Shown here piece after piece: positions 8,700 through 53,578 of a DNA stretch of 64,000 bases. Location of the stretch: NCBI GenBank assembly GCA_951406725.2, contig OX597815.1, forward strand, positions 168,826,001 to 168,890,000, written 5' to 3'. The notes beneath the pieces are model-generated. The model was given only the letters and a program-made list of their open reading frames with translations, had not been told where the DNA came from and did no database searches. Within the stretch, counting starts at the first letter, position 1. Every line of letters begins with the position of its first letter. The position numbers were made by a program, and so were the translations under genes. This DNA is from Octopus vulgaris (taxonomy: Eukaryota).

Positions 8700-9676
8700 C
8701 GAAATGAAAATTTATTTAAAATAGAAAAAAAAAAAAAAACTAATTATATTAGTAGGAAAAATGTTCCTAACAATTACGAAATTGCGCCATCTACCTCCTC
8801 TCCACTCATCCCCCCTTTACCCAACAATAAAACTATGAGAGTGGACAGAGACACATCCAGTACGAACTTTCTGTCGTTTGCCAAAATTAAAACTGTCAAT
8901 CAACATCAGATTCCCCATCCACGCTTCATCCAGTTTTCATTTCCTTTGTAATGCATCTATATAATTAACAAACCTTTTAACGTTACGCGCGCCTAGTATT
9001 AAGATAAATTGAGAAGGAGATAGATAAAAAAATATATATAATAATAACAAAACAAAAAAAAATCAAATAAAACAGAGTTTAGAAAAGAAAAGATTAAGAA
9101 ATCTAAGTTTAATAAATTATAGCTCCGCCCTTCTTGATAGTGAACACGTGTTTATCAAGTAGGATAAACCCATCCCTCTGTTTGCCTTTAATACTCCAGC
9201 TCAAAAGTTATTCAGTCGTATTGTTACAATTCCTTTTCTTTTCGTCGCTTTCTTTCTGTTCGTAAGTTAGTGGGGCGAGAGTGGATAAAGAAAAAGTTAA
9301 TAGAGGCACGAGCATACAGGTGAGAAAGACATGTTTTGATACCCCACAGGCAGCAAATCAGCAAGCAGTCAGATCAGTTGAAAATTACCCAGTAAATATA
9401 ACATATCTATATAACTGACAAAGAGTTTAGTTGTTAAGTTCATTTGTCGAGCGGATCCGTCTTGAGAGGTTACACTATTGAGCGTCGTCGATTTTATTAT
9501 TATTAGTAACATCGTTATTGTAACTTTTTATCACGGTCCAAATCAAATCACACCCAAAAAGGATTGAATTAAAAACGGAGGGGAAAAACTCTACACTTAA
9601 ATTACTGCTTTGCTTTCTTCCTTAAAACTTGGAGAACAAAAGCTGTCAAAAATCAAGTCTCGACACAGCCAGAAAT
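8700..9676. promoter_or_regulatory. Probable promoter / 5' UTR region of the dae4-like gene, possibly bidirectional
   Basis: Repeat-free and visibly richer in CpG than its flanks. It has a GC-box-like CTCCGCCC near 9123, GCGCCATCT near 8784 and CGCGCG near 8987, and lies directly upstream of the first coding exon. Confidence 0.4.
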
Positions 9677-9757
9677 ATGATAAATTATAAGTTGCTAATA
9701 TTTTCACTGACAGTCACTACATGGATACAGACTGCAACAAGCAGCGCACTAAAAACA
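9677..9757 (+). CDS. dae4: Exon 1 (coding part) of dae4-like gene: signal peptide MINYKLLIFSLTVTTWIQTATSSALKT
   Basis: ATG at 9677, 27 codons with a basic residue, hydrophobic core and small-residue cleavage region. It ends exactly at a consensus donor ACA|GTAAGT in phase 0, matching the phase-0 acceptor at 15743. Confidence 0.8.
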
Positions 9758-10203
9758 GTAAGTATTTATTTTGTTGAACTTTCTGGCTTCATTTAATATC
9801 TTAGTATAAAACAGTATTTAACGTATACAAATATTCAAAGCATGAAACTCCATACCGCTGTATATAATATGCGTGTGAGACAAGCGTACCCCCAACACAT
9901 ATTAGGATAATTTTTTTAATGAATTTGTCTAGACAGGCGGGCGCGCACACACACACACACAGCTAATCGAAGTTACAAAGTGATTTAAGAGCCAAGAGTG
10001 TCTAGCCTGACATTACTTTTTGAGTTCTTTTTCCGTGTTTGTATTACAGATTGGATTGATAAATAATTTAATGTAATTCAGTTTGAATGATGTAAATAAC
10101 TTGGTTGAATGATAAATTTAGTGTTGCTGGTGACGCTGGTTTGTCGAGGAGGGAAGCTTTGAACAAGTGGGACAAGACAAAACGATACCTTGGCCCTTAT
10201 ATC

Positions 10204-10248
<45 letters not shown>

Positions 10249-10654
10249 ATGAGATTATATATATATATGTCCGCAGGGACCCGTATCATCATGACCGAGT
10301 GGTTCAGAAATTTACAATGCATTCATGAAGGCAGGGTTCGATCTCACTCCATGTGATCTTGGGGAAAAGATTCGACCTGAAAGTTACGTTCAAGGAACAT
10401 GCGGCGACGTCTTTAGGCATGGGCACACTGGGCAGTTTCCTGGGGGCCCCTCACGGGTCAAGGGGCACAGTTTTGATCTATGCATGCTGTAGCGTGCTGG
10501 CAATGAATAAATGTTATGAAGATCCAGTAATTTGCCCTGAGACGGCCATGGGAACATGTGTCTGTTAATAATACTCAATGAGTAAGTGTAGGTGGTACAG
10601 TTGACTGAATAAATAAAGGTTCATCGCCAAAGCCAATAGATCTATTATGTGTGT

Positions 10655-10691
<37 letters not shown>

Positions 10692-11552
10692 ATGCGTGTG
10701 TGAATGTATTTATGTAGATTTCGAAGGAGCTTACTGTGATGGCCTGCTCGATTCTCAGGATCCATATTTTATACTACTCTTTTATAAGGCATGATATATT
10801 GGTTTGAAATTTCCTGGCACAAGGTGCCAGCAAATTCGGTGGTGGTGGGGTAAGTCGACATCGGCGGAATTTGAATTCAGAATGCAAAGACTTGAAATGC
10901 TGCCGCTAAGCATTTTGCCTGGCGTGCTAATAGTTCTGCCAAATTCGTCGCCGTATAAGGAATGATATACTTCATGTAATAAATATGCAACATATATTAC
11001 ACATAATAGAAACAACATATTACATTAGATATTCACACACAATACATGAATACACCAATCTTTACGTCGTCATGTTGGCGGGTTGTCATGAACTGGGGTT
11101 CTTATATGGGGTTATTGACTTTATAGAAGAACTGGGGGATCACGTCTCGTCCTCACGTTTTCTTTTTGGTTGATTTCTACAGCCGAACTCCCTTCCCGTC
11201 ACCAACAACTGCACAGAGTGCACTGGTTGCATTTTAATATGGCAAGGGAGACTTCGTGTCCTTGGCTAGACTAATGAGTTCTCTTAACATTGCCATATCA
11301 TTCATAAACCACCATAAATCACATGTAACATATATCATGCAGCATATACATTATATTACTTCTACATACATAAATACATACATACATACATATATACACA
11401 CACACACACTCACACGTGCGTGTGTATATCGACCCCAGTGTTCAAATGGTACTTATTTCGTCGACCTCGGCGGAATTTGAACTCAACGTAAAGGCGAACG
11501 AAATGCCGCTAAGCATTTTACCCGGCGTGCTAACAAGTCTGCATGCTCACCG

Positions 11553-11605
<53 letters not shown>

Positions 11606-13226
11606 TGATGGCTGCTCCCTCGTTATTGAGTATGGACATTGCACGAGGCTTAACTGTTATCGGTTCTGTGATCGAATGTGACTTTTTAGCCCAGCTAAAG
11701 ACCTACAATGTCTTGTACAGAATTGGCAGCTAAAACCTTTGCCGGCTGTAGTTATATACACATACGTACATATACACTCATACATACATACAAACAAATT
11801 TTTAATATCAGATACACACACACACACCGTGTCTATGAGCCAATATCCTGAAACCTGACCTCCACTACTTCTTTGCTATAGCTTCCTGTATCACACTTGT
11901 TAATAGTCAAAAGAAATCTATTACATACACGCACCCACATATCTCCCATACTCAGACAAGCATTGAAACGTGGAATCGAAATTTTAGCGTCCGTAGCTGT
12001 CACCCACTGAAAAACAACAAAAGGGGTAACTTCAACAGTTTTATACAAAGAACAGGTATGCTGTTTGTGGAGAGAGAGAGAGAAAGCAGGGTGTTTATGC
12101 GCATACCTTACAGGTGGATATGAGAAGACAGCATAGACTAGAGATATCGTAGTTGAACACAAACAAGAGGTAGGGTGCGAGTGAGGTTGACAAATAGTGA
12201 GGTGGGAGCAAAGGCAGATGTTTACTGTGAGAAACAATGCTTGGCTCTGATAAAAAAAAAAGTACAAAAGAACAAAACAAAAATAGTAAAGAAAATAAGA
12301 ATGACCCGACTATGTGGGCAGCACAAGAGGGCCCGAACGTCTACGCAATTGCTCAAACTGCTAGAAATAATAGCCAGCTCTCCCTCAAATCAAACCCATA
12401 CCGTCTTAAAAAGGGAAGAGTTATACACCACTACAATGCGGTACAACAGCTAGCATATGCCTTAAAAACAGAAAAATAATGTGATGGTCACAGCTTGAAC
12501 TCTTTTTAAGGTCTGGTTGATTTGAAGCTAAACCGCTTACTGTGATTTGGAGCAAGACTCCGATAAACTGACTTCTAGGGAGTATTCAAAAGCTATCCTG
12601 TCGTTCTTAATTTCTCTGGCTTAGTTTTTCAACAGGAAGAAAATAAATTAAATGTTCATTATCCAGAACGAATTTGATATGAATGAAAAGTTAGCATATA
12701 TGTTTCACTGTCGACAAGTCAATGCATTATCCCGCTCTATCCCTGCTACAACCACCAAGTAATCGCAGTAAAACTAGTTCAGTTCACTCAAGTAAACAAC
12801 TAAGATAGAAAAGAAACAGGTCGGGTTTTTTCCCAGTTATTTTCATTGTGCATTGAGAAAAGCAAATTGAGTACAATATTTGGCGGCAGTTGAACAAGAA
12901 TGAAATAGTGGAGAGTTTTAAAATCAACATGAGGAATCATAGATTGTAAAAAGGTTGCAGGTTGGACAAGGGCGAAATGTTCTGATTTGCCCTTTGTGGT
13001 TACCCTTTATATTTATTCATCTATTTCCTAACTTTTATATCTTTCAATCGGCGATATTAAAAAAAATATTTATAAAATAGTGTTAAATTTCCAATTTTTG
13101 CATGCTGTCTTGGTTCGTGTAAGGCCTTTGTTCTTGGATTTCTGTTTTTCTTACTATTTATAGGCGCAAGAATGATTATTAAGAAGGTCGCTTTGCAACC
13201 ACGTGGTTTCGGGTTCAGTCCCACTC

Positions 13227-13286
<60 letters not shown>

Positions 13287-14229
13287 TGTTGTTTGTCCCC
13301 TTACCATGTCTTCGACAAAAGAAAAAAAAAAGAGACTAATAGAATAAGTACCAAACTTGAATATAAGTACTGGGGTCGATTTGTCCGGCAAAGCCCTTAA
13401 ATGCGGCGCCTCTCCAGCATGGCCGCATTCCAATGACTTAAACAAGTAGAAGATAAAAGATCCTTGTAACAAATAAAGAAATTAATATTTCTATCTGGGA
13501 AAATGTTCTACAGTTTCCGTTACGAGTTTATGTGTTAAATGTGATATATTACGCACAGTCGCGACAAATAAAATCTACGACGGAGTTTCGATTGTGAATA
13601 GTTTCCTTTCTTGGGGAAGGTATAAATTACGTGGTATATAAAGAAATACATAATCGAAAACAAAGCAAAAAAAAAAAAAAACACCATTATTAGTAAGAAA
13701 CTCTAGCATTCGAGGATGCTAGTTAGGATAAATTATGCCTTTCGAAATTCACTTCAATTTCCACTTGACTAGATCCAGCTGGAACACTTCTCAGCTGCTT
13801 CTGCCATTATTACCTTAAGAGCTCTGGTAATTATCATTAAGGAGATAACCACAAGGCAGAGGTAATTTCCTTGCGAATAAAACTAATTATCTTTTTTTAA
13901 TAATATCAGGATGTATGCATTTCTCTTTATATATTTCTTTATTGCCCACAAGGGGCTAAACATAGAGGGGACAAACAAGGACAGACATAGGTATTAAGTC
14001 GATTACATCGACCCCAGTGCTAAACTGGTACTTTATTTATCGACCCCGAAAGGATGAAAGACAAAGTCGACCTCGGCGGAATTTGAACTCAGAACGTAAC
14101 GACAGACGAAATATACCGCTAAGCATTTCGCCCGGCGCGCTAACGTGTCTGCCAGCTCGCCGCATTCAATGCATTTCTCTTTATATTAGTCGCTACTACC
14201 CTCGTGCCATCCACTCACTGACTGTGTTA

Positions 14230-14830
14230 CCTCATACATAACCTTCAGAAAAATAGATATTTAAAAAAAAATTCTGCAAACACCTTTCAAATATTGTAGA
14301 TTCTGATTTGTTGTGAAAAATTTTGTTCAGAAGTGGGGAAGGAGTTTTGAATAATTTATATAAATCGACTTTGTTTCCTCATAACTTTTAGCAAAAATTA
14401 GTACTTTTTAATAAAATTCAGAAAGTATACATTATAATTATATCAGAATTTCATGTGAAAAAAAAAAAAAAAATGGTGGATAAGCACACACATACATACC
14501 AACACATCACATAATTTCAAATTTCATTTTGTAAATATATATGTGATGTGTGTATGTGTCCACTAATTTTGTTTCTTTTTATCTTATTAAATTTCAATGT
14601 AATCCTAATGGTATTTGCTGAAAATTTCATTAGAAAAAAAATACACGTTTTTTTCTGAAAGTTATGAGGAAACAAAGCTGACTCATGTAAATTATTCAGA
14701 GTTCGCCCGACTACTCCCCAAAAAACTTTTCACAACAAATTCCATTATAATCAGGATCTACATCATCTGAAAAGTATTTGTAAAAACTTTTATTTAAAAA
14801 TATCCATTTTTCAGAAAGTCATGAGGAAAG
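14230..14830. mobile_element. Old foldback/MITE with long imperfect inverted arms, in intron 1 of the dae4-like gene
   Basis: ACCTTCAGAAAAATAGATAT pairs with ATATCCATTTTTCAGAAAGT, TTTGTTGTGAAAA with TTTTCACAACAAA, and TTTGTTTCCTCATAACTTT with AAAGTTATGAGGAAACAAA. Confidence 0.65.
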
Positions 14831-15742
14831 AAAGTTGGAGAGGGCACAATTCTATAGGTATGCCCTAAAGACAGTCATGAATGCCACTGTGAAGTCTGAT
14901 GCATGTGAAAGAAATTTTTATAGAAGTTACAGCCAGATAAGAACTGGATGTAACCCTCAAAGACTAGGAACTTATGAAGTTAAACATCTTGATGCTTCCA
15001 ATCTGCTACTGACAAAGGGCTTTTTGCCCAAAACATTGAAACTCTTGCCTTCTTGTTTCCCCATGACATATGAATTTATCCAAATTTTTGAAATTCATTA
15101 AATATTTGCTGACACAGACCATCACTAGTTTCCTCAATTTCTGGTTTTTATTTAATTTTCTATTTTTTTATCAATGTCAATGAAATAAGTACCAGTAATA
15201 TACAGGAGTAGATTCCAACCCAATGGCTATATTTATTCCACTCACAGAAAATAAAAATGAAAATGTAAAAAAAGTGCATCTCCATGGTCACCCAACATGC
15301 TAGAAAAAATAACAGCAAAATCTCCCTCAACTGTCTTAAAAAGGGATTGATTAGCGTCATCCAGGTTCATTATGCCTGTGACAAGTCAGTAAGGTCATGA
15401 CTGGAATGCCTTTCAACACAAGTCAATCAGAACCAACTTGGGACCAAATAACAGAAAGGGGTTTTATGTCACAGCAAAAGAAAATATTCTCGTAGTCCTG
15501 TGCCAAGACTAAAAGTCATCATCATCATCATCATCCTCTTCACTACCACCACCACAATCTTTCCAGTCATTGAGAGAGAGACAATGTGAGAAACACTTGA
15601 CACTTCCTATTTCATTGGACAAGATACTTAACTCCACTTGCTAACAGTCTTAATTCCTATTTAGAGAATCAAGCATCAAAATATTTTTCATCATTATATT
15701 GCAATAATTTACATACAAATTTTTTTTTTTTAATTTTTACAG

Positions 15743-16265
15743 CTACCACTACCACAGTTCCAGTCACTAAAGAAGTTCTACCCAGGGTATAAACAGTATG
15801 GTGGAGAATTCAACAAGCTCCATCTATTTACGCTGATAGGATGTAATGAATCTTGCCAGAATAAAGTTTTGCACGACTCGAGTGCGTTACGCTTATCCTA
15901 TGCACTCAATAAGGTTGGTGGAGTCCACTCCTTGGGAAAAACACTTATTCGATTATCCACAAAAGGTGAGGACAGTGTGAGCGGCACAGATAATAACCAG
16001 TATATCTTTCACCCCATTGCTTATGGACCATATTTAGCAGACAAATATGGTTACCCAAATGTTTCAAAGTTACATGCTACAGATCCCATACAGACAATGA
16101 AGAAATTCTATGGAAAACAGGGAATAATACGGATAATAACATATGTCAAGCAAAACAATATGCCTAAAGGACATGTTGCATTGTGGGATTGTACACATTT
16201 CCACCAATCAAAAAACTGGTTGGTCAGTCATGAATTATTTACATTGGAATTCTGGGAATCTCCAG
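15743..16265 (+). CDS. dae4: Exon 2 of dae4-like gene: Tae4-family (T6SS peptidoglycan amidase effector, NlpC/P60-like fold) domain
   Basis: A poly-T tract and TTTTACAG acceptor precede 523 nt of open frame, which ends at donor CCAG|GTAAGA. The translation LPLPQFQSLKKFYP...HDSSALRLSYALN...SVSGTDNNQYIFHP...FYGKQGIIRI...KGHVALWD...LEFWESP has, in order, counterparts of the Tae4 motifs as recalled: RPxF, NACPIRMSYVLN, TVTGSDKKRYMFRV, FAGKQGII, TGHVTLWNG and FWSL. Confidence 0.9.
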
Positions 16266-18210
16266 GTAAGATATAAAATGTTTATACTTAGTTTACAATT
16301 TTTAATACATCACAATTGGTTGTTTAGCTTACTAGAACTAGTAGCTAAATCACCCTCAAATCTCACACTACCATCTTTAAAAAAAAAAAACAGAAGACAT
16401 ATTAGGTATTATGGGACTAGATAAACTTTGACTGAGAAAAATGATGAAGTGGTTGTGGTTGGAACACCAAAGATCAAATGTGTGATTGATCAAGGCAGAT
16501 GTAGAACTAAATAACAATCCCAATAATCCCTTTAGGGAGATGGAATAATAGAGGCCTTAAAATATTTAATTACACCTGTACCAGATTCAAACTTGATTTT
16601 CATTAATCTGGGACATCAATAAAATAAGTTCTACTCATTGTTTAGTCTCAGGTTAATCCAGGCCTTTTGATCTAAGGCATTCCTAAAGTGACTAAGTGTA
16701 TCTAGGGATACACTTATCTAATGTTCTTTTTCATTTTTAAGATGCAAGGGAAATTTTGCTATTTTTTTAAAAGTATTGATGATATATTTGCTGTTGTTTC
16801 AATTAACAACTATCATTTGTAACATCATTTTTATGCTAAATCGAAATAAATTACTTAGAGAAAATGAACTTTACTTTTAACTTTTAAGAAAGAGAATAAA
16901 TATCAACATCATTTCATAGCATGTAGTTTTGTTAAAAAAATAAAGGCCACCAACCTACGAAAACCATTTCTAAAGAATATATGTCCCATACCAATTCCAC
17001 CAAGAAATTTTCCCTTATTGTTTGACTCTGTTTGCAACAGAAACAGCTTTGTTTCTGAGTTGTAGAAGTTATAGTTAGGTTTAAAACACATCAAATGTTA
17101 AATTATCATATTAACAGAATTTGGTATATTTCTATATTTCCTTAACCCTTCAGTATTTGAAAGGGCCACACCAAACCAAAATATTCTCCTGGTTTTATAT
17201 TCAAACCAGCCAAATCCAGCTTCTCACACCTATCTTACAATGTCATTCTGAAAATAAACACTCACACCATCAAAATCTCAAAGCTGTTAGATAATGTATG
17301 ATTAATTCAAATCAATTTGAATAAATGAAGAATTATATTTAACAGAATAATCTGTATGCTAAAAAGTTTAGATTAACAAAGCGAAAGGGAATATTTGTTA
17401 TCCAAATACATCTCTGTACCTAAGACCATTGATTTAATTAGCAGTGGCAAGCTAAAATGTATGCCACACAGGGCTGTCCTCAAGTTTGCTGACTGCAGCA
17501 GGCCCAAATGTGCAGCCATCCCCCACCTTGAAGTGTTGCTTAGTGCAGACTGCCCTCATCACCTGAACTTCCTCAGATACACTACTGCCTGAAAGTATGA
17601 AAAGTAACCTTGAATCTGAGAAGATTCAATCTCTAAAACATGAGCACAAACCCAAGATATCCAAAATCATTTAGGCTCTTGATATTTTGCATTATTTTTC
17701 ACAGCCTGGTCATTGGACTCCAAATAATCCAAGCATTCATCATCATCATTTAACATCTGTTTTCCATGCTGCCATGGGTTGTACAGTTTGACAGGAGCTG
17801 ACCAGGGCTGTTCAGACTTTCATGTCCATTTTGGCATGGTTTCTACAGTTGGATGCCCTTCCTAACACCAATGAAATACATTGTGTTTGAGTAATTCTGA
17901 GCAATTCAAACATATAAGATTGTTTTATTTAAACCACCCATATCTAATCCAAATATTCTGTCTACCTGTTTTATATTTGAATTAACCAGATCCAGCTTTT
18001 CACACCCGCCCAACAATGCCATTCTATAAATAAACTATCGCATCATCATAATCTCAAAGATACAAGATAGTTCATGATTAATTCAAAACAATGTGAATAA
18101 ATAAGCAATACATTTGACAGAGTAATCTAAATGCTAAAGAGTTAAAATAAATTCAGATCTTCTGTAATTTCAATTGTCATAATGTAATTTTGGTTTCCAT
18201 TTCTTTATAG

Positions 18211-18419
18211 ACTCCAGCTGCAAACTGACAGATAATTATCAATGGCAAGATTACTATCAGAAAGCAGATCCAGCTGATATTGGCAGAAAAAGTTCCAAAT
18301 CTTTAAGACACAAAGCCCATAATAGACACAAAGGAAGCCAACGCTACCAACATCTTCTACGACTAGTTAAGAGTAAGCAACGGCCAAAGAAAAAGCACCA
18401 CCAAACATTAGGAAGCTGA
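18211..18419 (+). CDS. dae4: Exon 3 (coding part) of dae4-like gene: linker plus cationic C-terminal tail, stop TGA at 18417-18419
   Basis: The acceptor TTTCCATTTCTTTATAG is phase-1 compatible with exon 2 (G+AC = Asp). The frame reads DSSCKLTDNYQWQDYYQKADPADIGRKSSKSLRHKAHNRHKGSQRYQHLLRLVKSKQRPKKKHHQTLGS*. Confidence 0.8.
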
Positions 18420-19110
18420 GTTGGAGAAGATAAGTTTAAAAAATTGGCAGAAATCCATGACAAAAGTATTTCAACAACTGCAGCAATGTTACTTGAGCTT
18501 TATGAATGCAGAATACCCAAATGTGCCATGAAACTACTAAATAGTAGATATTGTTTCAAATTAATGTTCATTTTATTAAGATGATTAGATTAATATCAAA
18601 TAAAGAAAACCATAAATCTGCTAAATACATTGAAAGAGATAACACTTTAAAAGTTTATGACAATCTTGAGTTTGTATAAAATATAATGGCTTGGTCACAT
18701 GTTGAGAGGTCATTTTTTTTTTTTTGGTTATAATATGCTTTTGTCATCAATGGTTACTAAGAAACAACTAAGATGTTTCCATACCAAACATTTTGGGGAA
18801 ACCAACATAGGGAATATGTTTCCTGCATAACAGGGGGTCTTGCTGCAAGTTACTGTGGTAAAAGCTACAGAAGAAATACGTAAATGACATCCTTGGGTTC
18901 AGTGGCTGAACTGGCATTTAAAATTGATAATCATGTCAAACGTATATTAAGGATGGATAAAGATGTGATCAGGTATGTCCATGAGTCACCAAAGGACTGG
19001 CTATCTAAAGATTATCAATAACCTTTGCAGCTATGAATGCAATAAAGAAAATACCCTTGTGGTAAATGTTTTCTATTTGTAATATAATAAAGCTGTTCAT
19101 AAAATATGAA
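18420..19110 (+). promoter_or_regulatory. Probable 3' UTR of the dae4-like gene with polyadenylation signals
   Basis: Repeat-free stretch after the stop codon. AATAAA occurs at 18599-18604, 19041-19046 and 19086-19091, and SINE sequence resumes at about 19160. Confidence 0.5.
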
Positions 19111-22100
19111 TGTAAGTTCTTATTTCTTTAAATATTTTTGTTCACCCTGGATTATCTGTTTCTTTATTACCCACAAGGGGCTAAACATAGAGGGGACAAA
19201 CGGCTTAAGTCAATTACATCGACCCCAGTGCGTAACTGGTACTTAATTTATCGACCCCAAAAGGATGAAAGGCAAAGTCGACCTCGGCGGAATTTGAACT
19301 CAGAACATAACGGCAGACGAAATATGGCTACGCATTTCGCCTGGCATACTAACGGTTCTGCCAGCTCGCCGCCTTTCACCCTGGATTATCATTATTGGTT
19401 TAATGTTCACTTTTCCATGCTTGAATGAGTCAGACAGAATTTACTGAGATGGGTTATTTTTTACAGTCAGATGCCCTCCTTGTTGCCAATCCTCACATGT
19501 TTACAAGGGAGATTGGAAATGGATCTCACTTATGTAACATGTGGTTACAACTATCTCATGATGCTAACTAGGACAAGGAGACAGTAACACACACACATCA
19601 TCATCATCGTCGTCATTTAACGTCCGTTCTCCATGCTAGCATGGGTTGGACAGTTCGACCGGGGATCTGGGAAGCCAGAAGGCTGCACCAGGCTCCAGTC
19701 TGATCTGGCAGTGTTTCTACAGCTGGATGCCCTTCCTAATGCCAACCACTCCGAGAGTGTAGTGGGTGCTTTTTACGTGCCACCAGCACAGGTGCCAGGC
19801 AAGGCTGGCAACGGCCACGATCGGATTGGTGCTTTTTATGTGCAACCGGCATGGAAGCCAGTCTAGGTGGCGCTGGCATCAGCCACGTTCGGATGGTGTT
19901 TTTTACGTGCCACTGGCACGGAAGCCAATCTAGGCATCGCCCATGATACATATATAAATGTATGAGTGGGTTCCATTCCATTTACCAAATTTCACTCAGA
20001 AGGCATTGGTCAGTCAAATGCTTCAGTAGAAAGCACTCAAAGTGTAACACTGAAATTGAACTCAAGACCACACGACTGTTTAGTGAACTTCTTAATCATA
20101 CTACTTCTTCCTACCTATCTACCAAAACCCGTGCATGTGTCCCAACATACCCATGTCGGTCTCTACCCATAGCTATGCTTGTACCTAACACACAGTCATG
20201 CCTGCATAAAATACATAAAAACACTTAATACAACAAAGATAATAAAACAAAACATCAAAGGTACCCAAGGTATGCTGAGCTGCACCCGATTTTGCAGTGA
20301 AAGTACAGTGACAAAATAGACATATGAGAGTTGACTTGTTTGTCAAGTACAATTGGAAACTAACTAAATAACCCCAAAAAGCAGAAAGGAAAAAAAGTAA
20401 TAAAAAAAACTGCCGATAAACTAATGCAATAAAAACAGATTAATATATTAAGAAAATATATTAGCTGTGTCTATGTTTTGCAAGTAGCAACTAGATATAA
20501 CATTTTTATGAAAGAAAATCATAGCCTCATTTAGTTATGTTAAATTTCTTTTTCTATAAAAGTTTTTTTTTTCTTCTTCGTTTTACTATATCTTCACTGT
20601 GGTTCATTTATGCTAGTTACTATTTAAATCTAATGTCGGCTTCTGAATTCAAACCCTATTCTACATGTGTGTGTGATTATGAACATAGAATTTAGAATTT
20701 GATAAATTACAAGGGTTAATAGCTAACCAAATCCTTAAGGAACTGTATGTACGTAGTTATGTCTGTATGTATGTATCATCATTATCTTTTAACGTCCATC
20801 TCCCATGCTCATATGGGTTGGACAGTTCAATTGGAGCCAACACGGTCTGAGCAAGGCATTGTGCTTCAATATGTGTGTGTGTGTGTGCAAGTATATACAT
20901 ATGTGTATGTGTGCATATGTAAATATATACATGTGTGTGTTTATAGACAAATTTAGAGAGAGAATAAGTGAGTCAGTTTATTTTTCCTCAACATTACTGC
21001 CTATACAATAAAGAAAGTACATTTAACAATACTGCTATCACTAGATTAATTATGTAGCTGATCATCTAATTAGCTCAGCGGTTCTCATACTGACAATTAT
21101 CAAACCTCCTACCAAAAACAAAATAATGTGTACCAGTGGAATTTTTTACTGCCTTCCTCTTTATTAATGAGAACACAAAAGAGTCGGCATTCACATACGT
21201 CTTGTTTTCTCTGCTGCATTGTTGGTTTAAAAAGTTTAAAACTATCTAAATTATATTTAACATGGCAAATTCTTTGTCCTCTTTTTTCATCTTCACAGCA
21301 CCTCTCATGGAGAGAGGGTGAAAAAGCTAGGTTCTCCTATGAGAAACACTGACCTAGATGATCTAATTAGTGCTGGGGTTGTTGCACAAGCATAGTTAAA
21401 AGAGTAAGGGAAAAGGAGGAAGGAGGAGTGCTACAAACAAAGGGTTTCTTTCTTCAAGTGAAAAGTAGATTGTAAGAAGTATGATGTTGCAGACTAAGTG
21501 TGGAAGATCTGTGTAAGCTGGAGAGAAATAAAGCAAACATGATCCACTGGGAAAGTAATAAGAGACACAATATAATGAATGCTAGAAAGAAAATTTTGAG
21601 GGTCAAATCTTTGATACAGGGCCTCATGAATTTGAGATGGGTAATATACAGTACCTTAATAGAACCAGACAGTCAATACTAAAATGGAAAAAAATACTTC
21701 AAAGTACTAAATGATGACAACAATGATGCTTTGATTTCTTATCACCATCACCTTTATCCCTCTTTCAGACACCACGCCATTCAAAGTGGGGGAGCCCTGA
21801 ATTCCTACTCAACCCACTCGAATGTGCTCCTTATCACACTGCACCTCTTTCCCTTCTGTTTCTCTCTTTCGTAACAAACTCTGTTAGTCTCTCCCCTATC
21901 ACACTCTCAAAACAATAAACCTACTCCAATCATAATTTAGCATCTCTCACCTAGTCACATCCCACTCTCTCTCTCTCTCTCTCATTCTCCCACTTAGTCA
22001 TGGGGAACCCTTCATCTTGTGAGTTGTAAAGGTGACCTCACTAGTGCTGGTGATGCAAGAAAAAAAGTACCAAGTACACTCAGAAGAGTACTGTAAATCA

Positions 22101-31402: not shown

Positions 31403-32809
31403 CTGAAAACAATGGCAACTCTGTTTTCCATGAAATTTAGTTGAGAAAAAAAAAAGCTAAGAACTAATATAAATAAATAAATGAATAATATTAATTCTTT
31501 CTGCTACAGGCATCATCATCATCATCATCATCATCATCATTTAACGTCCGCTTTCCATGCTAGCATGGGTTGGACGATTTGACTGAGGTCTGGCGAACCA
31601 GACTCCAATCTGATCTGGCAGAGTTTCTACAGCTTGATGCCCTTCTTAATGCCAAGGTCTTACTAAGGACTGAAATTTGAGGGAGGCAACTAGTTGAATA
31701 CATCGACCCCCATCAGCCCCGAAAGGATGAAAGGCAAAGTCGACCTTGGTGGAATTTGAACTCAGAATGTAGTGACAGACAAAATACTGCTAAGCATTTC
31801 GCCTGGCGTGCTAACGTCTCTTATTTCTTTATTGCCCACAAGGGGCTAAACATAGAGGGGACAAACAAGGACAGACAAAGGGATTAAGTCAATCACATCG
31901 ACCCCAGTGTGTAACTGGTACTTAATTTATCGACCTCGGAAGGATGAAAGGCAAAGTCAACCTCGGTGAAATTTGAACTCAGAACGCAATGGCAGATGAA
32001 ATACCTATTTCTTTACTACCCACAAGGGGCTAAACACAGAGAGGACAAACAAGGACAGACAAACAGACTAAGTCGATTATATCGACCCCAGTGCGTAACT
32101 GGTACTTATTTAATCAACCCCGAAAGGATGAAAGGCAAAGTCAACCTCGGCAGAATTTGAACTCAGAACGTAGCGGCAGACGAAATACTGCTAAGCATTT
32201 TGCCTGGCATGTTAATGATTCTGCCAGCTCACCGCCTTGTTAGCTGGCACAATGCTAACGGTTCTGCCAGCTCTCTGCCTTAATGATGACAATGATTTCA
32301 AATTTTGGCACAAGAACAGAGAGGAAGTAAACCAGAGTGAAAACCAATAATGGCTTAAAAGTTCTAGGCTAAAAACAGAAACAAGTCTGATTTTAGCTGC
32401 ACAAGACTGAAACCAAGCCACAAATAACTATGAAAATGGTGGGAAAAGATTCTAGAAACAGACTTTGCAACCAGTAAGATAAAATTTTCAGCTACATTAT
32501 CTCTGGTAGCCCACTTCTTGCTAAGTCCTAGTATATTTTGTCTTTTATCTTCTAGCTGTTTCATTTGTGAGACTGTGGCCTAGCTGTGGCCAAGTCTTGA
32601 ACTTTAGCTGAATGAATCAACTCCAGTACATTTTTTTAAGCCTGGCAATTATTCTATTGGTTTCTTATGCTGAACCACTAAGTCACAGGGATATAAACAC
32701 ACCGACACCGGTTGTGAAGCAGTGGTAGGAGACACACACACACACATGCATATATAGCTTCAACCGATTGTGGCCATTTGCCAGCCTCCTCTGGCCCCTG
32801 TGCCAGTTC

Positions 32810-33365
32810 ACTGGCACGGATGCCTTTTACATGTCACCAACACAGGTGCCTCTTATGTGTCACCAGCATGGGTGCCTTTTACATGTCAGCAGTATCGGTG
32901 CCTTTTACATGTCAACAGCACAGGTGCCTTTTACGTGTCACCAACAAGGGTACCTTTTATGTGTCACCAGCACGGGTACCTTTTATGTGTCACCAGCACG
33001 GGTACCTTTTACATGTCACCAGCACGGGTGCCTTTACGTGTCACCAGCATGAGTGCCTTTTACGTGTCACCAGCACGGGTACCTTTTACGTGTCACCAGC
33101 ACAGGTACCTTTTACGTGTCACCAGCATGGGTACCTTTTACGTGTCACCAGCACGGGTACCTTTTACGTGTCACCAGCACGGGTACCTTTCACGTGTCAC
33201 CAGCACGGGTACCTTTCACGTGTCATCAGCACGGGTACCTTTTACATGTCACCAGCAGGAGTGCCTTTTAAATGTCACCAGCATGGGTACCTTTTACGTG
33301 TCACCAGCACAGCTGCCTTTTACATGTCACCAGCACGGATGCCTCTTATGTGTCATCAGCACTGG
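32810..33365. repeat. Minisatellite with a ~26-bp unit (GGGTACCTTTTACGTGTCACCAGCAC), about 21 copies
   Basis: Directly visible tandem array. It explains the overlapping repetitive ORFs at 32768-33457. Confidence 0.9.
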
Positions 33366-34334
33366 TCACAACTATGATTCCACTTAGCTTAACATGTCTT
33401 CTCATGTACAGCAAAACACCAAAAGTCTTACAAAGCTACAGGATAATGCATGATTAATTCAAAACATTGTGAATAAATAAGCATTACATTTGACTAATAT
33501 GAATGCTAAAGAGTTAAATGATAGAGGTTAATAGCATAACTCAAAACAGTTTTCTTATTTCTTTATTGCCCACAAGGGGCTAAACATAGAGGGGACAAAC
33601 AAGGACAGACAAAGGGATTAAGTCGATTACATTGACCCCAGTGCATAACTGATACTTAATTTATCGGCCCCGAAAGGATGAAAGGCAAAGTCGACCCCAG
33701 CGGAATTTGAACTCAGAACGTATCGGCAGACGAAATACCACTAAGCATTTCACCTGGTGTGCTAACATTTCTGCGGGCTCGCCACCTTATCTCAAAACAG
33801 TTTTCTCTCTGCATAAAACATATACACCATACAGTCACTACCCAAGAAAATAACACAATTCACACCCAAGCAACACATATATTCAGAACTGCTACCAAAC
33901 AATATAACACAGCACAAACTCTTACATAACCAATGCTGAACACCAACAACTCACACTCCATCATCATAGCTGCAGCCTATGAATGTTACACAAACCACAC
34001 ACCACATTCTCTACAGTAAAACTCATAACTCTATTTACACAGTACATACAAAACACAAATACCATCCAAAGAAATAACACAATTCACATTGCAAGCTACT
34101 CTCTTTAACAACGGATAAAACACTAAAATAACACGACAAATTACAAACCAAATCTCATAACAAAACAAAACTGTTGTAGTATACAAACACAGACAGAGTT
34201 ACATTCTCAGGAAACAATGGTGCTCCCAAGACTTCAAATAAACGATAATGATAATAATAATAATAATAATAAGCCCACTGACATCTTTGATTGAGACTTG
34301 GGTATGAATTAAAGCATAACCAACAACAACAACA

Positions 34335-41645: not shown

Positions 41646-43064
41646 ATCATCATCATCATCGTTTAACGTCCGCTTTCCGCGCTAGCACGGGTTGGACGGT
41701 TCGACCGGGTCTGGGAAGCCAGGGGCCGCTCCAGGCTCCAGTCTGAATCTGGCAGAGTTTCTACGGCTGGATGCCCTTCCTAACGCCAACCACTCCGTGA
41801 GTGGATTGGGTACTTTTTACGTGCCACCTGCACAGGGGCCGGAGGGTCCGGCATCAGTCACGATCGGTTCGAGCTTTTAACGTGTCAGCGGCACGGGGGC
41901 AACGAGGTCCGGGGTACTTTGGGGATCGGGGTACTTTGGGGATCCAGGGTACTTTGGGGATCCGGGGTACTTAGAATGGGTAGGGGGTATGTGGAATTGC
42001 TGCAGAAAGCAGCCCGGGTCTTTGTAGTCACAGCATATCTCCAGAGATCTCGGTCCTTCGCCATTGCCTCAGTGAGGCCCAATGCTCTGAGGTTATGCTT
42101 GACTACCTCATCCCATGTCTTCCTGGGTCTACCTCTCCCCCTGATACCTTCAACTGTTTGGGAGTGGCACTTCTTCACACATCTCTCTTCATCCATCCGC
42201 AGCACATGACCATACCATCGCAAGCGTCGCTCTTGCACACCACATCTGATGCTTCTTATATCCAGCATTTCTCTCAGGATGCTTACACTCTGTCTTGCGT
42301 GCACACTGACACTACACATCCAGCGGATCATGCTAGCTTCATTTCTTTCAAGTCTACGCATGTCTTCTGCAGTCACAGCCCATGTTTCATTACCGTGAAG
42401 CATGGCAGTTCGCACACATGCATCATACAATCTACCTTTCGCTCTGAGGGAGAGACCTTTTGTTGCCAGTAGGGGTAGGAGCTTTCTGAACTTTGCCCAG
42501 GCTATTCGTATTCTAGTGGTGATACTCTCTGTGCATCCACCTCCGCTACTAACTTGGTCACCCAGGTAGCGGAAACTATCAACTACTTCTAGTTTCTCTC
42601 CCTGGAGTGTGATGGAATCTGTTTTCTGAGTGTCTGTTGTGTCTATTGTCCCTGTGCATCTGCCGCACATGAAAGCTATCTTATCTGTTAATTTCCCTTT
42701 AATGTTGCTGCACCTCTTATGTGTCCATAACTTACATTGGGTGCATCTTATGGAGTTTCTACCTGTACCTTTCCTACAGGTTGAGCAGGGCCACCTACCC
42801 GAGGGGGTGTGTGCTGAGTACCTCTTGCTGCTTACTAATACTTTGGTCTTTGCTACATTTATTCTAAGGCCCTTTGATTCCAACCCTTGCTTCCACACCC
42901 GAAATTTCTCTTCTAGTTCCGGTAGTGATTCTGCTATGAGAGCTAGGTCATCGGCATAGAGGAGCTCCCAGGGGCATCCCGTTTTGAATTCCTCTGTTAT
43001 TGCCTGAAGGACTATGATGAATAAAAGGGGACTGAGGGCTGAGCCCTGGTGCACACCTACTTCT
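41646..43064 (-). mobile_element. 5'-truncated RTE-clade LINE: RT C-terminal part, PHD finger, 3' UTR and (GAT)n tail
   Basis: Uninterrupted frame with GVHQGSALSPLLF, LLYADDLAL, VDSFRYLG, RRLRWYGHVLRM and GRGRPRKTW. It is contiguous with the 3' UTR sequence found in many short copies across the window. Confidence 0.92.
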
Positions 43065-44349
43065 ATATATATAAAATATAACATGCTAACACTTTCTCAA
43101 ATTCTCAGTGAGAAGTTACTATCCAGAACTTCAAAAGTACCAGTATTATTGCAGAAGAGCCATACTTAATTCAAAATAGACTATCAATAAACAAACAGCA
43201 ACTGAAGTTGTTCAACTTATCAGTTAAGCGCGTCCTAGTATGTCAATAACATGAAAATAGCCTTATCATGGTTAAGATAAACAGTGAAATTCAAATACAT
43301 TCAACAACCCAGCTTTCTCTTTACTACATATGGTGCACAATATTAGGAGAATTTAATCAATTTGTTTCTTACTTTTAGTCAAGAGGGAAGGCAATGCCTA
43401 TGTTTCTTTACTGTCCCTCATCCCCCTGAGACTAGTAAGAGGGAGAGAGTAAGGTAACTTCAAAGAGGAGACCTGGCCTCAATGCTTGCAAAGGAAATGG
43501 ACTCGGTTGCCTGGTACCTTAGGTATTTTTAACAATATTAAACAAGGTTGTAAATTAAGTCAGTCACCCAGGTAGGTCATGGCAGGATCCAAACACAAAA
43601 TGCTAAAAGCAGAAATAAATACTGCAAGGCAACCACTCTCAGATTCTTAACCCTTTCATTACCATATTTCTGTAGAAATACACTGATTTTGTTTTAATTA
43701 ATTCTGAAATAATGAAGAATAAAATAATTTTACTATAGGCACAGGCATGGCTGTGTGGTAAGAAGCTTGCTTCCCAACCACATAGTTCCAGGTTCAGTCC
43801 CATTGCATGGCACCTTGGGCAATATCTTCTACTATCACCTCAGGCCAACTAAAACCTTATGAGTGGATTTGATAGACGGAAACTGAAAGAAGCCCATCAT
43901 ATGTATATGTAATATGTATGTATCTTTGTGTCTCTGTTTGTCCCCCCCCCCCATCACTGCTTAACAATTGGTGTTGGCGTGATTACGTCCCCGTAACTTA
44001 GTGGTTCAGCAAAAGAGACCGATAGAATAAGTAGTAGGCTTAAAAATAAATTCTGGGGTTAATTTGTTCAACTAAAAACTTTCAATGCAGTGCTCCAGCA
44101 TGGCTGCAGTCAAGCTACTGAAACAAGTAAAAGGATAAACGAATAAAAAAAATATTAAGCTGAGGTTTGGAACATAAATTAAGTTTTGATGGGAGGTTTT
44201 AATTTAAATCACTTTAAAACAGTAAGTTTATATTACAGAACCAGGGGCAGTCTCAGGCAGATTGATATCAAATGGGTTAACAGTTCTGTTAAAGCACCAA
44301 CCTGGATTATTACTCACATTTTTATCACACACACACCCCCATCAGAGAA

Positions 44350-50244: not shown

Positions 50245-50902
50245 TATATATGAAAAAAGGTTTGAAAATGCAATTTAAACGATGTTTATTTACTTAACCG
50301 GTTTCACTCTTTGTTAAAAAGATTGTCAAAAGTAACATTGAATATTATGGGTTCAAAAAAAGTTTTTTACATAATTGTCACATTGAATATTATGAATTCA
50401 AAAATGTTTTTTTATACATAATTGTCACATTACATGTATAAATATAGTATAAAAAAGTTCAATAGTGTGATGAGAATATTTGGAAAAATTGGCAGAAAAG
50501 AATAAAACAAATATATTATTGGAAATTTGGTTGCGTTAATTATTGGTTGTCGCAAATTGTCACATTACATGTATATATATACAGTCTTTGGTAGAAATGA
50601 CATGTTAAAGACATAAGGAAGTGTAATAGTTTGGTGAGAAAGCTTGTAATATTGACAGAGAAAATTAAAATGGATATTTTAGACATCTCAGAATATTTTG
50701 AATCGAAGGCGAGAATTTGTTTTTTACTGACCTGTTTGTTTTAGCAGAAAAGTTGAATTGAGAGAAAAAAAGATATGTACCCAATTTGGTTTATACTTCC
50801 CCTTCAAGCATCAGTGACTTTGGGGTTATTGGGAGGTGAGTATGCGGGTGTGAATAGATGTGTCCGTGTGCCTGCTGGTCAGACAGCGTCTGTTTGTCAC
50901 AC

Positions 50903-50992
<90 letters not shown>

Positions 50993-51097
50993 CACACACA
51001 CACACAACGCACCCACATATATAATATATACACACAGCACACAAATATAACATGTATTTATATATAATATACACACATATATAAAACATACACACAC

Positions 51098-51143
<46 letters not shown>

Positions 51144-51858
51144 CATAATATAAATATCACACAAATACACCTAGCATATATATACACATACAATACACAT
51201 ACACAGCATGTATATAATACACATACACAATATATGCATGCAATATACATACGCAATACATACATATAATATATATATATATAGACAATGCATATACATA
51301 TATACATATATACATATAAATAGTGTTTACATACACATACATAGATATACCACATATACACACAATATACATACATACAATGCATACACATACACGTACG
51401 CATACATATAAAATATATAGACACACACACACATAACATACATACACAATGCATACATATATATACACGCAACGTATATACATGTATTCATGTATATATA
51501 GCACACTTACAATATACATATATACAATGCACACATACACACATATATACACTTAATTGTACACATACATATACAATACACATACATACAATATACATAT
51601 ACACAATGCGCATGCAAATAATGCACATGTTTATACACCCATATACATGAAAATATATATACACACACACACATACACACACACATATATATATATACAC
51701 ATATATATATATATATACACATATACATACATACATACATGCACATACATATATTTTTTCACACACATACACACACATATATATATAAAATTCACACACA
51801 CACCCACACACACAAAATACATTGTGTACGAGTGTATGTATTTACATGTGTATTTGTT

Positions 51859-51890
<32 letters not shown>

Positions 51891-52685
51891 CTGTGTGTGT
51901 ATATGCATGGTATGTGTGTATATGTGAGTACATTGTTTGTGTGTGTGTGCGGTATGTAGAGATATATTTGAGTGTGTACACTATAGGTTTGTATTTTGTG
52001 TGTGTGGGTGTGTGTGTGAATTTTATATATATATGTGTGTGTATGTGTGTGAAAAAATATATGTATGTGCATGTATGTATGTATGTATATGTGTATATAT
52101 ATATATATATGTGTATATATATATATGTGTGTGTGTATGTGTGTGTGTGTATATATATTTTCATGTATATGGGTGTATAAACATGTGCATTATTTGCATG
52201 CGCATTGTGTATATGTATATTGTATGTATGTGTATTGTATATGTATGTGTACAATTAAGTGTATATATGTGTGTATGTGTGCATTGTATATATGTATATT
52301 GTAAGTGTGCTATATATACATGAATACATGTATATACGTTGCGTGTATATATATGTATGCATTGTGTATGTATGTTATGTGTGTGTGTGTCTATATATTT
52401 TATATGTATGCGTACGTGTATGTGTATGCATTGTATGTATGTATATTGTGTGTATATGTGGTATATCTATGTATGTGTATGTAAACACTATTTATATGTA
52501 TATATGTATATATGTATATGCATTGTCTATATATATATATATTATATGTATGTATTGCGTATGTATATTGCATGCATATATTGTGTATGTGTATTATATA
52601 CATGCTGTGTATGTGTATTGTATGTGTATATATATGCTAGGTGTATTTGTGTGATATTTATATTATGTATATATGTGTGCGTGTG

Positions 52686-52722
<37 letters not shown>

Positions 52723-53578
52723 GTGTGTGTATGTTTTATATATGTGTGTATATTATATATAAATACATGTTATATTTGTGTGCTGTGTGTATATATTATA
52801 TATGTGGGTGCGTTGTGTGTGTGTGTGTTCTGTGTGTGTGTGTGTTGTGTGTATGTGGTGTGTGTGTGTATACTATGTGTGTGTGTGTATTGTTGTTGTG
52901 TGTGTGTGTGTATATATGTGTGTGACAAACAGACGCTGTCTGACCAGCAGGCACACGGACACATCTATTCACACCCGCATACTCACCTCCCAATAACCCC
53001 AAAGTCACTGATGCTTGAAGGGGAAGTATAAACCAAATTGGGTACATATCTTTTTTTCTCTCTCAATTCAACTTTTCTGCTAAAACAAACAGGTCAGTAA
53101 AAAACAAATTCTCGCCTTCGATTCAAAATATTCTGAGATGTCTAAAATATCCATTTTAATTTTCTCTGTCAATATTACAAGCTTTCTCACCAAACTATTA
53201 CACTTCCTTATGTCTTTAACATGTCATTTCTACCAAAGACTGTATATATATACATGTAATGTGACAATTTGCGACAACCAATAATTAACGCAACCAAATT
53301 TCCAATAATATATTTGTTTTATTCTTTTCTGCCAATTTTTCCAAATATTCTCATCACACTATTGAACTTTTTTATACTATATTTATACATGTAATGTGAC
53401 AATTATGTATAAAAAAACATTTTTGAATTCATAATATTCAATGTGACAATTATGTAAAAAACTTTTTTGAACCCATAATATTCAATGTTACTTTTGACAA
53501 TCTTTTTAACAAAGAGTGAAACCGGTTAAGTAAATAAACATCGTTTAAATTGCATTTTCAAACCTTTTTTCATATATA
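50245..53578. repeat. Large inverted repeat: arms 50245-51821 and 51990-53578, 168-nt spacer
   Basis: The unique portion 50245-50900 is the reverse complement of about 52920-53578. Mirrored ORFs (51557+ / 52254-, 50775+ / 53047-) have identical starts. Confidence 0.95.

Follow-up and report, generated by a model that had tools for sequence, protein, structure and literature searches.

Within a 64-kb window of Octopus vulgaris DNA, the whole stretch that was analyzed, we found a gene, dae4, whose predicted product of 270 residues combines a Tae4-like domain, with Ser in place of the catalytic Cys, and a C-terminal extension of 69 residues beyond the domain that ends in a strongly basic, His-rich tail. 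Based upon sequence comparison and structure modeling, we tentatively favor a scheme in which the tail stays attached and serves as an electrostatic, His-rich anchor, fixing a probably inactive secreted domain to anionic surfaces, of which bacterial envelopes are the most likely. For example, the protein could be secreted whole, with a dead cleft that still binds peptidoglycan peptides. The tail, joined by a flexible linker, could add to the avidity by binding LPS, teichoic acids or the polyanions of mucus; the outcome would be recognition, trapping or agglutination instead of lysis. The original prediction had read the same tail as a membrane-active peptide that either replaces delivery by the T6SS or is released at a Gly-Arg-Lys site, and these proposals fared less well than the description of the tail itself.

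The gene lies on the forward strand. Its 5' untranslated region (9210..9676) has an approximate start, with contigs beginning at 9207-9210 in three of four runs and continuing without a break to 9757. The coding part of exon 1 (9677..9757), from the ATG at 9677 to a GT donor after 9757, encodes 27 residues that are predicted, by eye and by comparison with orthologues, to form a signal peptide; the N-terminus is hydrophobic in the octopus and in the orthologues as well. Intron 1 (9758..15742; 5985 bases, phase 0) separates it from exon 2 (15743..16265), which encodes the whole Tae4-like domain (residues 28-201), and intron 2 (16266..18210; 1945 bases, phase 1) separates exon 2 from exon 3. Both introns have GT..AG joints. 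The first part of exon 3 (18211..18284) encodes a DSxC motif with Cys205 and an acidic linker ending in DPADIG. The 44 residues of the tail follow at 18285-18416, with the stop codon at 18417-18419; the start proposed earlier, 18284, is one base off, and the frame beginning there contains stops. The 3' untranslated region (18420..19106), also with an approximate end (contigs end at 18935-19106), carries AATAAA at 18599, 19041 and 19086.

Both splice joints, exon 1 to exon 2 (9757 to 15743) and exon 2 to exon 3 (16265 to 18211), were found together in one contig in each of four runs, which bears out the earlier assumption that exon 3 is spliced to exon 2. These four runs, carrying four study codes, come from 24 listed; their RNA status is guessed and the tissue is not given. 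At 18396 the window has C and all four contig sets have A, which changes His38 of the tail to Asn and leaves five His in those transcripts; this is probably an allele or strain difference. The predicted protein differs at one residue from the Octopus sinensis model LOC115223700 and at 13 from O. bimaculoides LOC106884232, and gastropod orthologues are 63-66% identical to it. Searches of the octopus's own genome returned one match each for the domain, the Pfam family and exon 3 (lower bounds), and by these searches dae4 is a single-copy gene. The hallmarks of a domesticated gene, here one descended from a bacterial toxin that cuts the cell wall, are present: introns, a predicted N-terminal secretion signal and a location on an animal chromosome. 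An NF-kB-like motif had three matches against 4.1 expected, and none close to the gene start.

The domain matches PF14113 with an E-value of 1.7e-9 and 38 bits, against a cut-off of 27. A structure model built from a 55-row alignment reached a mean pLDDT of 86.6 (34 with a 10-row cephalopod alignment) and superimposed on Tae4 4hfl with a Z score of 17.7 and an rmsd of 2.2 over 153 aligned residues (Foldseek E 4e-10). Across the solved bacterial structures (PDB 4hfl, 4hff, 4j30, 6ijf and 4bi3), the fold is common over residues 26-205 of the model, with Z scores of 16-18. Thus, profile and modeled fold both place the octopus protein in the Tae4/Dae4 family. It also has the His of the bacterial GHVxLW motif, but departs from bacterial Tae4 in having Ser for Cys, Gln at the Asp position, a predicted signal peptide, two introns and the 69-residue extension, and in being without a T6SS.

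The substitution at the catalytic Cys, as originally called, is supported by the Pfam match, the alignment and the fold. Ser74 (15881..15883) aligns with the catalytic Cys in the NACPIRMSY segment of solved Tae4, and the position is Ser in 49 and Thr in 6 of the 55 aligned rows. Among 96 relatives it is Ser in 81 and Thr in 9, the remaining 6 being fragments, and some further relatives have Ala, Lys or Asp. The catalytic His is retained as His171 (16172..16174), and is His in all 87 readable sequences of the 96 first hits. Eleven residues further on, at the position of Asp137 in StTae4, the same 87 have Gln (66), Glu (14), Lys (6) or His (1), and none has Asp; the octopus residue, placed by residue count rather than coordinates, is Gln182. 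Two other Cys, Cys177 (55/55 rows) and Cys205 (54/55), probably form a disulfide, and the domain as a whole carries a net charge of +7. Mutation of Cys44, His126 or Asp137 is each reported to abolish StTae4 toxicity (PMC3695027), and C63A to abolish the activity of nvDae4 from Nematostella (PMC8713801). Because the Cys and the third-position Asp, both required in StTae4, are missing, we infer that octopus Dae4 is a pseudo-amidase that has lost its activity. Other combinations occur in the family: P0105, P0108, P0113, P0114 and P0118, one of them from Tubulanus, have Arg at the catalytic His position and have also lost the Cys, and P0126, P0128 and P0139-P0144 keep the catalytic Cys and have no His at the catalytic position, which is directly preceded by an additional Cys.

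The composition of the tail was confirmed in the window sequence: 9 Lys, 6 Arg and 6 His with no Asp or Glu, for a net charge of +15 and a pI of about 12. The 25 residues ahead of it (D202-G226) have a net charge of -3, in keeping with the acidic linker described earlier. Net +15 occurs in only 4 of 15,900 stop-free 44-mers from the six frames of the window, and the three of these four with at least six His all lie in the dae4 exon 3 reading frame. KR and RR pairs are absent. Hydrophobic residues make up 16% of the octopus tail, and the median over 54 tails of relatives is 27.5%. The best 11-residue hydrophobic moment in the octopus tail does not stand out from 300 shuffles (p=0.25), and amphipathicity exceeded shuffles (p 0.05) in 4 of 61 tails. 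In the model, pLDDT falls below 50 at residues 223-238, suggesting that the linker ahead of the tail is flexible or exposed, and a helix is predicted at 245-268 (pLDDT about 67-81). Heparin-binding segments are classically described by the Cardin-Weintraub patterns, which are not needed for binding; the strict consensus, XBBXBX, occurs in 14 of 61 tails against 15.7 +/- 3.1 expected, and not at all in the octopus tail.

How general is this arrangement? Our 96 hits comprise 54 with a spliced DSxC extension, 33 whose sequence stops within the intron or continues through it, and 9 that are truncated. Among the 54 spliced relatives, 47 have a net charge of at least +4 over the last 30 residues, and 51 have no net positive charge over the first 20 residues that follow the Cys. 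The predicted conservation of charge therefore holds, and His content is kept as well. In the sequences compared, molluscs generally have a basic, His-rich tail preceded by a linker that is neutral or acidic, and basic ends are found also in a brachiopod (Lingula, net +9), a nemertean (Tubulanus, +6) and an annelid (Owenia, +4). True tails differ from 15 intron read-through ends in charge per residue (0.21 versus 0.09, p 1e-4) and in His (0.11 versus 0.02, p 1e-7). Arg-His dipeptides number 78 against 26 +/- 4.5 in shuffles, roughly three times the mean, and a hydrophobic-Arg-His motif is present in 43 of 54 tails, both counts coming from related rather than independent rows. Exceptions include P0057 and P0069, with net charges of -1 and -2, and P0113 and P0114, which stop 7-8 residues after the domain. 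Separately, P0069, P0073, P0080 and P0085 form a second group of bivalve paralogues, with 100/100 support, that is more divergent and has shorter and less basic tails.

Conservation within the tail is uneven. Among four cephalopod cluster representatives, a basic core beginning LRHK (18303..18374, residues 233-256) is invariant at 19 of 24 positions, compared with 11 of 41 in the remainder of exon 3 after Cys205 (Fisher p 7e-5) and with 107 of 174 in the domain (p 0.11). The RKSSKS segment ahead of the core, which holds the proposed dibasic site (18285..18302), is invariant at 1 of 6 positions, and the variable basic end (18375..18419 with the stop codon), where the C-to-A difference at 18396 lies, at 3 of 14. 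Such letter-by-letter conservation of the core would be easier to explain by a specific partner than by charge alone. Across mollusc classes, tail profiles scored against 200 shuffles each gave mixed results: the gastropod profile recognized 0/4 cephalopod and 12/29 bivalve tails; the bivalve profile, 3/4 cephalopod and 6/19 gastropod tails; and the cephalopod profile, 6/19 gastropod, 8/29 bivalve and 0-1/6 chiton and non-mollusc tails. Homology of the tails across classes is thus weakly supported. The octopus tail used as a query returned two candidates in the 148-473 aa range, both orthologues, in a word-limited search that missed the cuttlefish protein and is uninformative on tails elsewhere; in the ESM Atlas, P0003 matched its own mollusc cluster. 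In trees, 40 rows form a lophotrochozoan-like group (support 87/87, and 81/89 in a smaller set), with one long-branched bacterial-like row. Catalytic loss is common to all 40, and the trees do not order events.

The Gly-Arg-Lys site proposed for release is found in Octopus species only. RK follows DIG in 2 of 10 cephalopod-like rows, both from Octopus; at the same place Argonauta has GAKYSK (AKYSKT after the Gly), the Sepia pharaonis cluster GKEKAK (KEKAKN) and a fourth cephalopod-like cluster GEETAK (EETAKN). The six site residues are less conserved than any other part of exon 3. More broadly, G[KR][KR] and RX[KR]R each occur in 3 of 54 tails, and the residue ahead of the hydrophobic-Arg-His motif is Lys or Arg in 16 of 48 cases. 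Convertases are described as cutting after a dibasic pair, with RK a valid one (PMC9070308). Since they cut after the pair, the product would be 42 residues long. A Gly at such a site would lead to amidation of the domain side, not of the tail. Cleavage in Octopus is possible, but by these comparisons the site does not appear to be what selection kept. At least one dibasic pair is present in 48 of 54 tails, and so clipping by general proteases may occur.

Several roles could be envisioned for such a tail. In favor of an attached anchor on bacterial envelopes are the basic tail set against a neutral or acidic linker in most spliced relatives, the lack of a conserved cut site, the low hydrophobicity and the flexible linker of the model. 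The tested member of the family, nvDae4, is reported to be secreted, immune-induced and active on peptidoglycan (PMC8713801), and animal Dae enzymes are described as unable to cross outer membranes unaided (bioRxiv 2020.04.10.036376). Against it, the strict heparin consensus is not enriched over 61 tails, some relatives have a weak or absent basic tail, and there is no NF-kB-like site near the start; moreover, a single copy and the level of identity to gastropods would be slow evolution for an immune effector. An attached tail could instead bind host polyanions such as heparan sulfate, mucus or matrix, or a specific host partner, in a structural or signaling role unrelated to bacteria. We consider this possible, if doubtful, and it comes close behind the bacterial anchor because of the conservation of the core, the single copy and the slow evolution. 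Loss of catalysis throughout the lophotrochozoan-like group and the Hint domain that takes the place of the tail in one relative (P0173) also point this way. On the other hand, the heparin consensus speaks no better for host polyanions, the retention of His171 in all 87 readable hits suggests that the cleft still binds something, and both Nematostella tae4 homologues, one of them without the Cys, are reported to be immune-induced (PMC8713801).

Two ideas that build on the original prediction appear to fit the evidence worst of the four readings. In the first, proteolysis would free the tail as a histatin-like or metal-assisted antimicrobial peptide, which we regard as unlikely. The net charge of +15 with five or six His, the exposed linker and the predicted helix would suit such a peptide, and RK is a recognized dibasic site (PMC9070308). 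A cut directly ahead of the hydrophobic-Arg-His motif could, in addition, give a metal site. Cleavage there would create an N-terminal Xaa-Xaa-His, a metal-binding arrangement. Yet the site is missing in Argonauta and cuttlefish, cut-site patterns are rare among the tails, Lys or Arg precedes the motif in a minority of cases, and few tails are more amphipathic than their shuffles. A membrane-lytic peptide in particular is unlikely because the Gly-Arg-Lys site is unconserved, hydrophobicity is low and amphipathicity is not in excess, although so basic a peptide, made synthetically, may well be bactericidal at low salt without this reflecting its natural function. In the second idea, the tail would permeabilize the outer membrane and deliver an enzyme that remains active by using Ser as its nucleophile, in place of injection by the T6SS. 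Retention of His171, the prevalence of Ser as the substitute (81/96) and the basic domain itself are compatible with this, but the occurrence of Thr (9/96) and of Ala, Lys or Asp in other relatives, the absence of Asp at the third position, and the reported inactivity of the StTae4 (PMC3695027) and nvDae4 (PMC8713801) mutants make it highly improbable. A cargo without the Cys and Asp that StTae4 needs is poorly suited to the role, and an enzyme that is dead would not need to be delivered across the outer membrane.

In secreted proteins with polybasic retention tails, and in lysins with polycationic ones, a basic segment is joined to a folded secreted domain through a flexible linker. The octopus protein resembles them in outline, but heparin consensus sites are not enriched and the cargo is probably inactive. 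Histatins, octominin and cuttlefish hemocyte peptides are, going by their descriptions, basic and His-rich like the octopus tail. However, the octopus tail is far below the 28-63% hydrophobic residues of five cuttlefish candidate peptides reported in PMC7551771, and has no conserved release site. Among domesticated effectors, nvDae4 is likewise an animal secreted Tae4 homologue, and Nematostella is reported to have a Cys-less paralogue too; unlike the octopus protein, nvDae4 has retained its Cys and is active, cleaving peptidoglycan and killing B. subtilis (PMC8713801). The nvDae4 sequence was not among our hits. Tick Dae2 is also a secreted domesticated amidase effector, but belongs to another Tae family, is active, and is described as unable to cross outer membranes (bioRxiv 2020.04.10.036376).

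Dae4 is a known family, and for the mollusc tail variant our literature search, which covered few subscription journals, found no paper on the protein or its tail. The founding Dae paper by Chou et al. in 2015 is said to include mollusc members and may already note the loss of the Cys. The Dae proteins that have been tested are active lytic enzymes. A Cys-less domain with a basic tail is kept across four phyla, and therefore this branch must do something else; in molluscs it offers a compact candidate for a protein that binds peptidoglycan or is anchored at a surface. Taken by itself, the octopus tail is nothing special, and release as a peptide is unlikely.

A separate lead came from P0173, a single record that combines a signal peptide, a Tae4 domain (28.9 bits) and a Hedgehog-type Hint domain (137.9 bits), in which Tae4 and Hint are connected by a short linker followed by a CFP junction. 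Its cluster-mates diverge directly after the domain, at the position of mollusc intron 2, as read-throughs would, and a search of the ESM Atlas with P0173 gave no usable match. Cnidarian Hog proteins are described as having an unassigned N-terminal domain with at least three Cys (Buerglin 2008, PMC2362128), which the Tae4-Hint fusion may identify. It is conceivable, but quite unlikely, that early in lophotrochozoan history a bacterial cell-wall toxin became a dead, surface-tethered sensing or signaling protein, with the exon after the domain acting as a swappable anchor. Molluscs, brachiopods, nemerteans and annelids would then have a polybasic Arg-His tail there, and the P0173 group a Hint autoprocessing domain. 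The Hedgehog signaling domain derives from a cell-wall peptidase fold, and a swappable anchor, if real, would parallel it.

Elsewhere in the window, an open frame of 403 residues on the reverse strand (41885-43096) has a partial reverse transcriptase match (PF00078) and a PHD-like match, as in a fragment of a non-LTR retroelement. A dispersed repeat, probably an octopus SINE, has copies at 13930-14160 and 19160-19375, where contig depth is very high. Two overlapping open frames at 32718-33387 fall on a repetitive stretch and have no Pfam match over the cut-off. The region from 50897 to 53031 is rich in microsatellites and repeats near-identical long frames on both strands, which suggests an inverted duplication or an assembly artefact.
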